From assembly GCF_056746865.1 (NCBI RefSeq), contig NZ_CM163382.1: DNA of 64,000 bases; one strand, written 5' to 3'. This document shows positions 1,844 to 2,866 of the stretch, in pieces. Each line of letters opens with the position of its first letter. Positions within the stretch are counted from its first letter, which is position 1. A program made the position numbers and the translations under genes. The notes beneath the pieces were generated by a model. It ran no database searches, was not told the DNA's origin, and was given only the letters and a program-made list of their open reading frames with translations.

Positions 1844-2866
1844 ATGTCTAGTCTTAATTTATTCGATGATGTCGTACCTTTAGAAAAACAGCATCCAATA
1901 TATATAATGATGAAAAAGGAACGCTATGAACCGGAGAGAGAAGTAATTAACCAATGGGCAAAAGGATTTCTAGACAGGGATAATAAGTTTACAAAAGAAT
2001 TTCAAACAAGTTTTGAACCTTGCCTATGGGAGTTATATCTTTTTGCTTATCTTAAAGAATTGGGTTTAAGGAACGACTTTTCATACGATGCACCTGACTT
2101 CATCGTCAATGAACCTGGGTTTTGCATTGAGGCAACCATAGCCCTTCCGGCACAAGGAGCCCCTGGAGCGCATGGTTTCAGTACGGAAGATATGCCAAGA
2201 GATTTTAATAAGTTTAATTCTGAGGCATCTATTCGACTTAGCAATAGTTTTATATCAAAGGTAAAAAAATTAAGATCGAGATATTCTCAACTTCCTCAAT
2301 GTAAAGAAAAACCTTTTGTTATCGCCATAGCTTCCTTCGACCGACCTTTTGCGCACTTTGCCGCAGCCAGACCCATACTTGCAACATTATATGGTTTATA
2401 TCATGATGAAGAAGCAACCATTGAATCAGGATCAAAGAGCATAATTTCTTATAACGTTGAGGCTGCGGTAAAAAAAGAAAATGTTAATATAGCCATGGGG
2501 TTATTTTGCACGCCTGATTATTCGGATGTAAGTGCTGTGATTTATAGTAGTTTAGCTACTTGGGGAAAAGTAAGAGCTTTGGCGGACAATCCTTCAGCTC
2601 TAACAATTTATACAACCTTTACCCCAAGAGAAAATTCATTATATCCTAAAGTTCATCAAGCCAAAAAAAATGATTATATAGAGCATCTGGCAGATGGATT
2701 GTATATTTTACATAACCCATTTGCCAAGTATCCGTTGCCTAAAGAGACGCTAAGCCACCCTAGAGTAGCACAAGGTTATGTTGAATCTGATGGATACGTC
2801 AATTTTGTAGCGCCAGAGGATTTTCTTTTATTGCGTTTTTTACAATCATTCAATCTTAAAGATTAG
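1844..2866 (+). CDS. Hypothetical protein, AT-rich, unknown function
   Basis: ORF-track frame 1796-2866; start placed at ATG 1844, preceded by GAGGTG Shine-Dalgarno; low GC relative to backbone. Confidence 0.6.
   Translation: MSSLNLFDDVVPLEKQHPIYIMMKKERYEPEREVINQWAKGFLDRDNKFTKEFQTSFEPCLWELYLFAYLKELGLRNDFSYDAPDFIVNEPGFCIEATIALPAQGAPGAHGFSTEDMPRDFNKFNSEASIRLSNSFISKVKKLRSRYSQLPQCKEKPFVIAIASFDRPFAHFAAARPILATLYGLYHDEEATIESGSKSIISYNVEAAVKKENVNIAMGLFCTPDYSDVSAVIYSSLATWGKVRALADNPSALTIYTTFTPRENSLYPKVHQAKKNDYIEHLADGLYILHNPFAKYPLPKETLSHPRVAQGYVESDGYVNFVAPEDFLLLRFLQSFNLKD

Follow-up and report, generated by a model that had tools for sequence, protein, structure and literature searches.

Organization of the locus

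The window, i.e., the whole stretch of 64,000 nucleotides of contig NZ_CM163382.1 (NCBI RefSeq assembly GCF_056746865.1) that was analysed, contains at positions 1844-2866 (+) a gene of the PD-T7-5 family, coding for a protein of 340 amino acids that is predicted to be a stand-alone nuclease of the PD-(D/E)xK fold. RefSeq lists its product as a hypothetical protein (WP_001376998.1) with the same start, namely ATG 1844. The longest frame in the open reading frame listing was 1796-2866 (+; 356 amino acids); alignments with homologues open at residues 3-5, in line with a start at ATG 1844, and a Shine-Dalgarno motif (GAGGTG; 1835-1840, +), read off the sequence, ends 4 nt 5' of this codon. The gene has a GC content of 36.9%, lower than that of the window (49.2%) and of the DHFR-family gene to its left (52.6%). 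A previous description made without database searches (hereafter the sequence-only reading) had already pointed out a low-GC reading frame with a good Shine-Dalgarno motif, flanking repeats, and a convergent CBS-HEPN gene, all of which were found as described. The convergent neighbour (3197-4294, -; 365 amino acids) is DS-11, a CBS-HEPN one-protein anti-phage system (NCBIfam NF053863 'DS11_antiphage'; 404.9 bits versus a cutoff of 260). The 3.2-kb region around the PD-T7-5-family gene is 100% identical to that of many complete Escherichia coli genomes; the frame of the gene is intact, with copies at least 99% identical, across 127 complete E. coli genomes, and its protein is present on at least 1,000 contigs.

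Several other features surround these two genes. Directly left of the cassette that holds the PD-T7-5-family gene lies a DHFR/RibD-C-terminal-like gene (1083-1622, -) of normal GC content, confined to the same approximately 130 genomes as the defence genes, and left of it an IS3 remnant (about 884-1063). Near DS-11, a 200-amino-acid tyrosine recombinase consisting of the catalytic domain only is encoded (approximately 4648-4886 and 6197-6563, -), its gene being split and inactivated by the insertion of an IS3-family element. The latter (4887-6196) is complete, with orfA/orfB, 25-bp terminal inverted repeats (88% complementary), and an ALIL frameshift pseudoknot (5222-5338; Rfam, 121 bits). It is lacking at that position in strain 2017C-4173W12 (locus L001), in which the recombinase gene is intact (L001 15149-15751) and L001 12345-13367 corresponds to 1844-2866 of the window. 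Beyond the recombinase gene, at a position (Y) that is occupied by HEC-08 or PD-T7-1 in other genomes, two AT-rich hypothetical open reading frames occur (6924-7499 and 7524-7799, both +). Searches of PADLOC, NCBIfam, and PHROGs with the 191-amino-acid product of the former (6924-7496) and of PADLOC with the 91-amino-acid product of the latter (7524-7799) gave no match; both genes are candidate defence genes.

In the intact island of L001, a PD-T4-1 match (677 bits) occurs 6.7 kb upstream of the PD-T7-5-family gene. The locus, in the ypjA region, is a small defence island of an ordinary kind. The PD-T4-1 match is a DUF3883 protein (L001 4469-5671), the gene of which measures 1,203 nt, as does that of the PD-T4-1 prototype. 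The latter was obtained from strain UMB0934, which also gave PD-T7-5 (PMC9519451), and this shared origin, together with the equal length, hints that UMB0934 carries this island. Farther along the window, a tRNA-Met (CAT) gene (16694-16769, -), the MicA sRNA (47947-48018, +), and a cluster of four tRNA-Arg(ACG) and one tRNA-Ser(GCT) genes (50928-51924) are landmarks that fit the E. coli ypjA-to-luxS/argQZYV region.

Family membership and distribution

The gene belongs to PD-T7-5, a family already catalogued by PADLOC. Indeed, the PADLOC model for PD-T7-5 (PDLC04110) matched the protein over its full length, with residues 4-335 aligned to positions 1-340 of the 346-position profile (E 8.2e-102; 338.8 bits), and the PADLOC model for PD-T7-1 matched it as well (E 1.2e-50). 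In addition, the protein falls in PHROG 8571 (E 1e-88), which has no assigned function. Neither Pfam nor NCBIfam has a model for it, Pfam remaining empty even at E<=10, and this is why the gene looked like an orphan. The sequence-only reading, which called it an orphan of no recognizable family, did not hold, as it is a member of a named defence family with 1,116 representative homologue clusters at E<=1e-3. A word-indexed search returned 688 homologues, many of which are misnamed 'glycosaminoglycan attachment site', a spurious name. The distribution of the family is large and patchy: 136 family loci were confirmed in species-representative genomes of Proteobacteria, Firmicutes, Cyanobacteria, Bacteroidota, Planctomycetota, and others, and the same fold was retrieved in 392 AFDB50 clusters of AlphaFold-DB, at a TM of about 0.85-0.99.

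PD-T7-5 was found in a functional selection against phage T7 (Vassallo et al. 2022, Nat Microbiol; PMC9519451). Its prototype, a single coding sequence cloned from strain UMB0934, was validated and labelled 'Nuclease', and this prototype (RRM82777.1) protects against T7 as a single gene (PMC9519451). Later papers and reviews place PD-T7-5 among the single-gene PD-(D/E)xK systems, and a low-probability RmuC-like hit is mentioned in later literature. A literature search found no mechanistic study of PD-T7-5.

According to its published coordinates, the validated prototype has 390 amino acids (PMC9519451), a length out of reach of the frame in the window (at most 356 amino acids) and of the E. 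coli paralogue (344 amino acids). AlphaFold-DB does contain a family member of 390 amino acids, which is 26% identical to the window protein, and accession RRM82777.1 did not appear in the cluster look-ups for the latter. Given 390 versus 340 amino acids, the window protein probably represents a different subfamily from the validated prototype, and a defence function of its own is predicted from this kinship.

Predicted fold and candidate active site

Ten alignment columns are invariant among 92 homologues, down to 26% identity, namely Q54, E63, P84, D85, E96, K139, Y147, F221, G285, and N291. When PD-T7-1-type relatives and relatives with N- or C-terminal extensions were added, E63, P84-D85, E96-A97, K139, and Y147 were still invariant. 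An AF2 model based on the alignment of homologues reached a pLDDT of 95.4 and a pTM of 0.94, and comprises a helix (58-72), three short strands (around 77, 86-88, and 93-100), a second, long helix (121-145), and a strand (158-164), followed by a beta-rich C-terminal half. Foldseek gave no match for this model in the PDB, and a profile search of the PDB sequences gave none for the protein. Similarly, no curated nuclease profile of the Pfam clan matched the window protein, even at E<=10.

The segment APDFIVNEPGFCIEATIA, comprising residues 83-100, had been compared tentatively with a PD-(D/E)xK nuclease core in the sequence-only reading. This comparison was right in kind: D85 and E96 of the segment, as well as E63 and K139, are invariant in the 92 homologues, and the discoverers of the family obtained the same weak call with HHpred for the prototype, the table of which lists PD-(D/E)xK hits over residues 58-107 at probabilities of 40-78%, with Hjc on top (78%; residues 63-107) (PMC9519451). 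The assignment draws mainly on residue conservation, complemented by a weak fold similarity. The catalytic signature is incomplete in one respect. Whereas E63, P84-D85, and E96 are invariant, the canonical lysine of the ExK motif, two residues past E96, is replaced (E96-A97-T98); this position holds T98 in the window protein and T, V or A in all relatives. K139, invariant on the following helix, is a candidate stand-in for this strand-3 lysine. Judging from the conservation pattern, E63, D85, E96, and K139 are candidate catalytic residues.

Two parts would make up the protein: a restriction-endonuclease-like N-terminal domain of the PD-(D/E)xK type, spanning approximately residues 55-165, and a beta-rich domain particular to the family at the C-terminus (approximately residues 185-335). 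In the former, a metal ion would be held by E63 of the helix, D85 at the start of strand 2, and E96 of strand 3; T98 would stand at the place of the usual strand-3 lysine, whose role is probably filled by K139 of the next helix.

A cassette bounded by two-hairpin repeats

The repeats on both sides of the gene were retrieved first by a repeat search as direct repeats (1679-1736 and 3066-3123), 76% identical over 58 nt; their core pattern was found in 0 of 100 shuffles. They form part of a larger two-hairpin element of about 94 nt, referred to here as R, with a left copy at 1649-1742 (+; covariance model, 81.2 bits, E 4e-20) and a right copy in the same orientation at 3036-3129 (+; 69.9 bits, E 3e-17), located between the stop codons of the gene and DS-11. 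The covariance model was built from 26 copies. The consensus consists of hairpin 1, GTCCGCTCC-TGGCAC-GGAGCGGAC, a linker of about 19 nt, and hairpin 2, GTCCGCT-GTGAGCGAGG-AGCGGAC, both hairpins being made from the same arm. Neither Pfam, NCBIfam nor Rfam contains anything for the R repeats, no Rfam family matching the repeat of about 90 nt.

Between the repeats lies a mobile cassette (1752-3038, +), made up of an upstream region of about 90 nt, the gene, and a 3' region of about 170 nt. Its boundaries are visible in comparisons with the closest relatives, with which nucleotide homology is limited to the stretch between the repeats (blastn). Two of these relatives (loci L131 and L135) match positions 1752-3036/3038 of the window at 84-86% identity; for a third one (L132), the match (1751-2867) stops at the stop codon. 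Degenerate R copies also flank the closest relatives of the gene.

R is common in E. coli. Its consensus occurs in 1,362 of 5,426 complete genomes (25%), at one to five copies each, and is never annotated. The contexts that were opened are all variable regions of mobile elements, namely the lambdoid nin region, the tail sheath/tail fibre locus of P2-like phages, and the pin region of e14-like elements, besides islands of O157, APEC, and Nissle strains. The copies form arrays of the same orientation, 0.4-3 kb apart and mostly with one short AT-rich gene in between; two or three direct copies are arrayed in loci L083-L088 and in IMG/VR contigs. R repeats are also present at loci L136-L140 and at the IMG/VR loci L089-L130. 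Only three of the 20 proteins encoded next to such cassettes match PADLOC, namely HEC-08, a DUF3644/PDC-S64 protein, and PD-T7-1, the others being uncharacterized.

The palindromic nature of R may be under selection. In the 26 copies, hairpin 1, which lay outside the search pattern, has kept 79% of its pairing, with five of nine pairs changed on both sides, and its covariation score was reached by one of 500 shuffles. Given these compensatory changes, some selection for the palindrome seems real. Single-strand folding of the two window copies was no better than that of shuffled sequences (z -0.8 to 0). Three explanations of R were rejected. Firstly, a structured RNA is argued against because the orientation of R relative to the flanking genes is inconsistent, and the window copies fold at the level of shuffled sequences. 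Secondly, R does not represent integron attC sites, as the attC end boxes are not conserved. Thirdly, R is not intrinsic to the PD-T7-5 family: none was found at 80 family loci outside enterobacterial mobile elements, so that it belongs to the vehicle rather than to the gene.

Relation to DS-11

The CBS-HEPN neighbour is exactly WP_000257686.1, which defends E. coli MG1655 when cloned alone (gene of 1,098 nt) as DS-11 and which is inactivated by the HEPN mutations R330A and H335A and by the CBS mutation Y157A (DefensePredictor study). With the neighbour being the DS-11 protein and the gene belonging to PD-T7-5, both are thus members of systems that have been validated as single genes. The two genes are adjacent and both AT-rich, and the sequence-only reading proposed that they may form a two-gene module, to be checked by their co-occurrence across genomes. 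Indeed, each of the two genes was found in 127 complete E. coli genomes, and these are the same 127, all of them with the whole block. However, every copy of the two-gene block is at least 99% identical, i.e., these genomes share one inherited clonal island, and this co-occurrence is therefore uninformative on function.

Beyond this island, the association disappears. No relative of DS-11 was found within 10 kb at any of 80 homologue loci in other species (tblastn, E<=0.01), which contradicts the proposed pairing. The most recurrent neighbour family, a P4-type integrase, was found at no more than eight of these 80 loci. The three closest relatives, located in other prophage contexts, have other neighbours too, and no CBS protein was encoded near any of them, namely a 90%-identical relative at the end of a lambdoid prophage, an 88%-identical one in a nin region, and an 85%-identical one by tail-fibre genes next to a tRNA gene. 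Thirty other E. coli genomes carry a 37%-identical paralogue, which follows a cytosine methylase gene and an ATPase gene in an ssrA island. In E. coli CFSAN061768 (region 6042-8941 of L002), this paralogue (WP_000345320.1) lies directly 3' of the genes of the Dcm-type methylase and the ATPase; the ATPase has a PD-Lambda-5_A-like C-terminus and ApeA is close by, making this another small defence island. In the window, the two genes are convergent rather than co-transcribed, and DS-11 defends when cloned alone. Moreover, the right-hand repeat lies between them, which indicates separate units. The gene is independent of DS-11 and has no conserved partner.

Proposed function and alternative explanations

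Taken together, the gene most likely encodes a single-protein anti-phage nuclease of the PD-T7-5 family, carried in its own mobile, repeat-bounded cassette and independent of DS-11 (probability of about 0.8). The protein would act alone as a stand-alone, metal-dependent nuclease of the restriction fold, cleaving nucleic acid in infected cells, most probably the DNA of the phage, and hence limiting phage replication, with a protection of the kind seen for the family prototype against T7. Target recognition or control would probably be provided by the family-specific C-terminal domain. The AT-rich cassette of about 1.3 kb, with its own upstream region and bounded by the two R copies, travels among prophages and islands separately from its neighbours, and DS-11 is a second, independent defence gene of the same small defence island. 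As to the mode of action, we infer that the protein is a nuclease, that its substrate is DNA, and that it acts directly instead of through abortive infection.

The last point leaves room for a variant within the same family, namely an abortive nuclease that would be inactive until infection and would then degrade nucleic acid (DNA or RNA) of both host and phage, killing the cell. Such a mode would fit the lack of a methylase or any other self-marking partner conserved beside the gene, as well as the large conserved C-terminal domain, which could be a sensor or autoinhibitory module. In the source study, 12 of the 21 systems appeared to be abortive, but seven of the 11 DNase-like systems in that study provided direct immunity (PMC9519451), so that the abortive variant is considered the less probable mode, albeit one that deserves serious consideration.

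It is improbable that this allele is not defensive, i.e., that it is a divergent, inactive or otherwise employed relative, such as a nuclease that helps the cassette or prophage to move or to be maintained. Its probable distance from the validated prototype and its location in a mobile cassette would agree with such a role. Yet, the frame is intact and has been kept in the 127 genomes and on the numerous contigs mentioned above, every family-invariant residue is kept, and the nearby DS-11 and PD-T4-1 genes are validated defence genes. Furthermore, cassettes with the same repeats elsewhere hold unrelated genes, so R does not need this protein.

Finally, a two-gene module in which the protein and the CBS-HEPN protein would cooperate, be it as a sensor-effector pair, a toxin-antitoxin pair or otherwise, is very improbable, as the adjacency, AT-richness, and joint occurrence of the genes in its favour are outweighed by the clonality of the 127 copies, the single-gene nature of both systems, the absence of DS-11 relatives from the 80 loci, the different neighbours of the relatives at 85-90% identity and of the 37%-identical paralogue, and the convergent arrangement with a cassette-boundary repeat in between.

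Possible cassette exchange and implications

The repeats themselves invite a broader, more tentative interpretation. A stretch of exactly 1,966 bp with a PD-T7-1-type gene is shared, at 99% identity, by a P2-like Yersinia phage and the lambdoid coliphage mEp460, its left breakpoint being inside hairpin 2 and its right breakpoint directly after hairpin 1. These breakpoints therefore suggest that a cassette consists of hairpin 2, the gene, and hairpin 1, with the crossover taking place in the linker. It is conceivable, albeit doubtful at this stage, that R copies are the crossover sites of a non-integron cassette exchange in Enterobacteriaceae that moves small accessory units, often one gene and many of them anti-phage. 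Such units may pass between P2-like phages, lambdoid prophages, e14-like elements, and chromosomal islands.

One candidate for the enzyme of this exchange is the 200-amino-acid tyrosine recombinase near DS-11. Its gene is found in 800 of 5,426 E. coli genomes (15%), and the genes on either side of it always differ, often being HEPN or defence-like genes. These recombinase loci share only a module of about 700 bp, with a 39-nt palindrome over the start of the gene. The protein scored 46 bits, versus a cutoff of 220, with an Xer/integron-integrase model, and it was missing from 50 of 55 R-bearing loci.

Nilsson et al. 2004 (Mol Biol Evol 21:1) reportedly inferred site-specific recombination for the Z/fun locus of P2, and R repeats may already have been noted there in that work. 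A description of the R repeat-cassette system was not found in a literature search, the likeliest source papers being beyond its reach, and the novelty of R is uncertain.

The gene as such is already known, as PADLOC calls it PD-T7-5 and its neighbour is the published DS-11, and the architecture of the repeat-bounded cassette is more interesting than the gene itself. For annotation, a predicted defence nuclease with named candidate catalytic residues can take the place of the RefSeq entries 'hypothetical protein' and 'glycosaminoglycan attachment site'; with the pairing of a CBS-HEPN protein with a nuclease refuted, effort on it can be spared. The gene neatly illustrates a defence cassette with repeat boundaries, and the R family may account for the movement of single defence genes from one prophage hotspot to another, unrelated one. 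R could serve as a marker to find new defence gene candidates; if the exchange does occur, these could be mined at low cost from R-bounded cassettes, because most cassettes seen encode proteins without a PADLOC or NCBIfam match.

Comparison with known systems

With the PD-T7-5 prototype, the window protein shares a full-length match to the family HMM, an organization as a single gene without a conserved partner, a weak PD-(D/E)xK signal at the same residues (approximately 58-107), and an origin in the E. coli accessory genome; it differs in length (340 versus 390 amino acids for the prototype). PD-T7-1 (PMC9519451) is likewise a single gene and has a core of about 330 amino acids in common with the window protein, with the same invariant E/PD/E/K/Y residues. 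It also forms a repeat-bounded cassette, represented by the 99%-identical copies in the P2-like Yersinia phage and the lambdoid coliphage, but it has an extra N-terminal region of about 110 amino acids and is only about 25% identical to the window protein. Compared with further PD-(D/E)xK defence nucleases that act as single proteins (Shedu/DUF4263, HamA of Hachiman, NucC, and Cap4 nuclease domains), the window protein lacks a match to any Pfam nuclease family, its strand-3 lysine is replaced, its C-terminal beta domain is family-specific, and a cyclic-nucleotide sensor or helicase partner is absent.

As for the repeats, R resembles the attC sites of integrons by analogy only. In both cases, hairpin-forming repeats of 60-100 nt and of the same orientation are located between mostly single genes that share no backbone, the same cassette recurs in replicons that are unrelated, its breakpoints falling within the repeat, and many cassettes carry defence genes. 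Unlike integrons, however, R loci are devoid of an IntI integrase, the R''/R' 7-mers are not conserved, and the terminal AAC/GTT boxes are present in a minority of the copies only. Moreover, the crossover of R appears to lie between two local hairpins instead of at a G/TT site, and the genes of R-bounded cassettes occur in either orientation.
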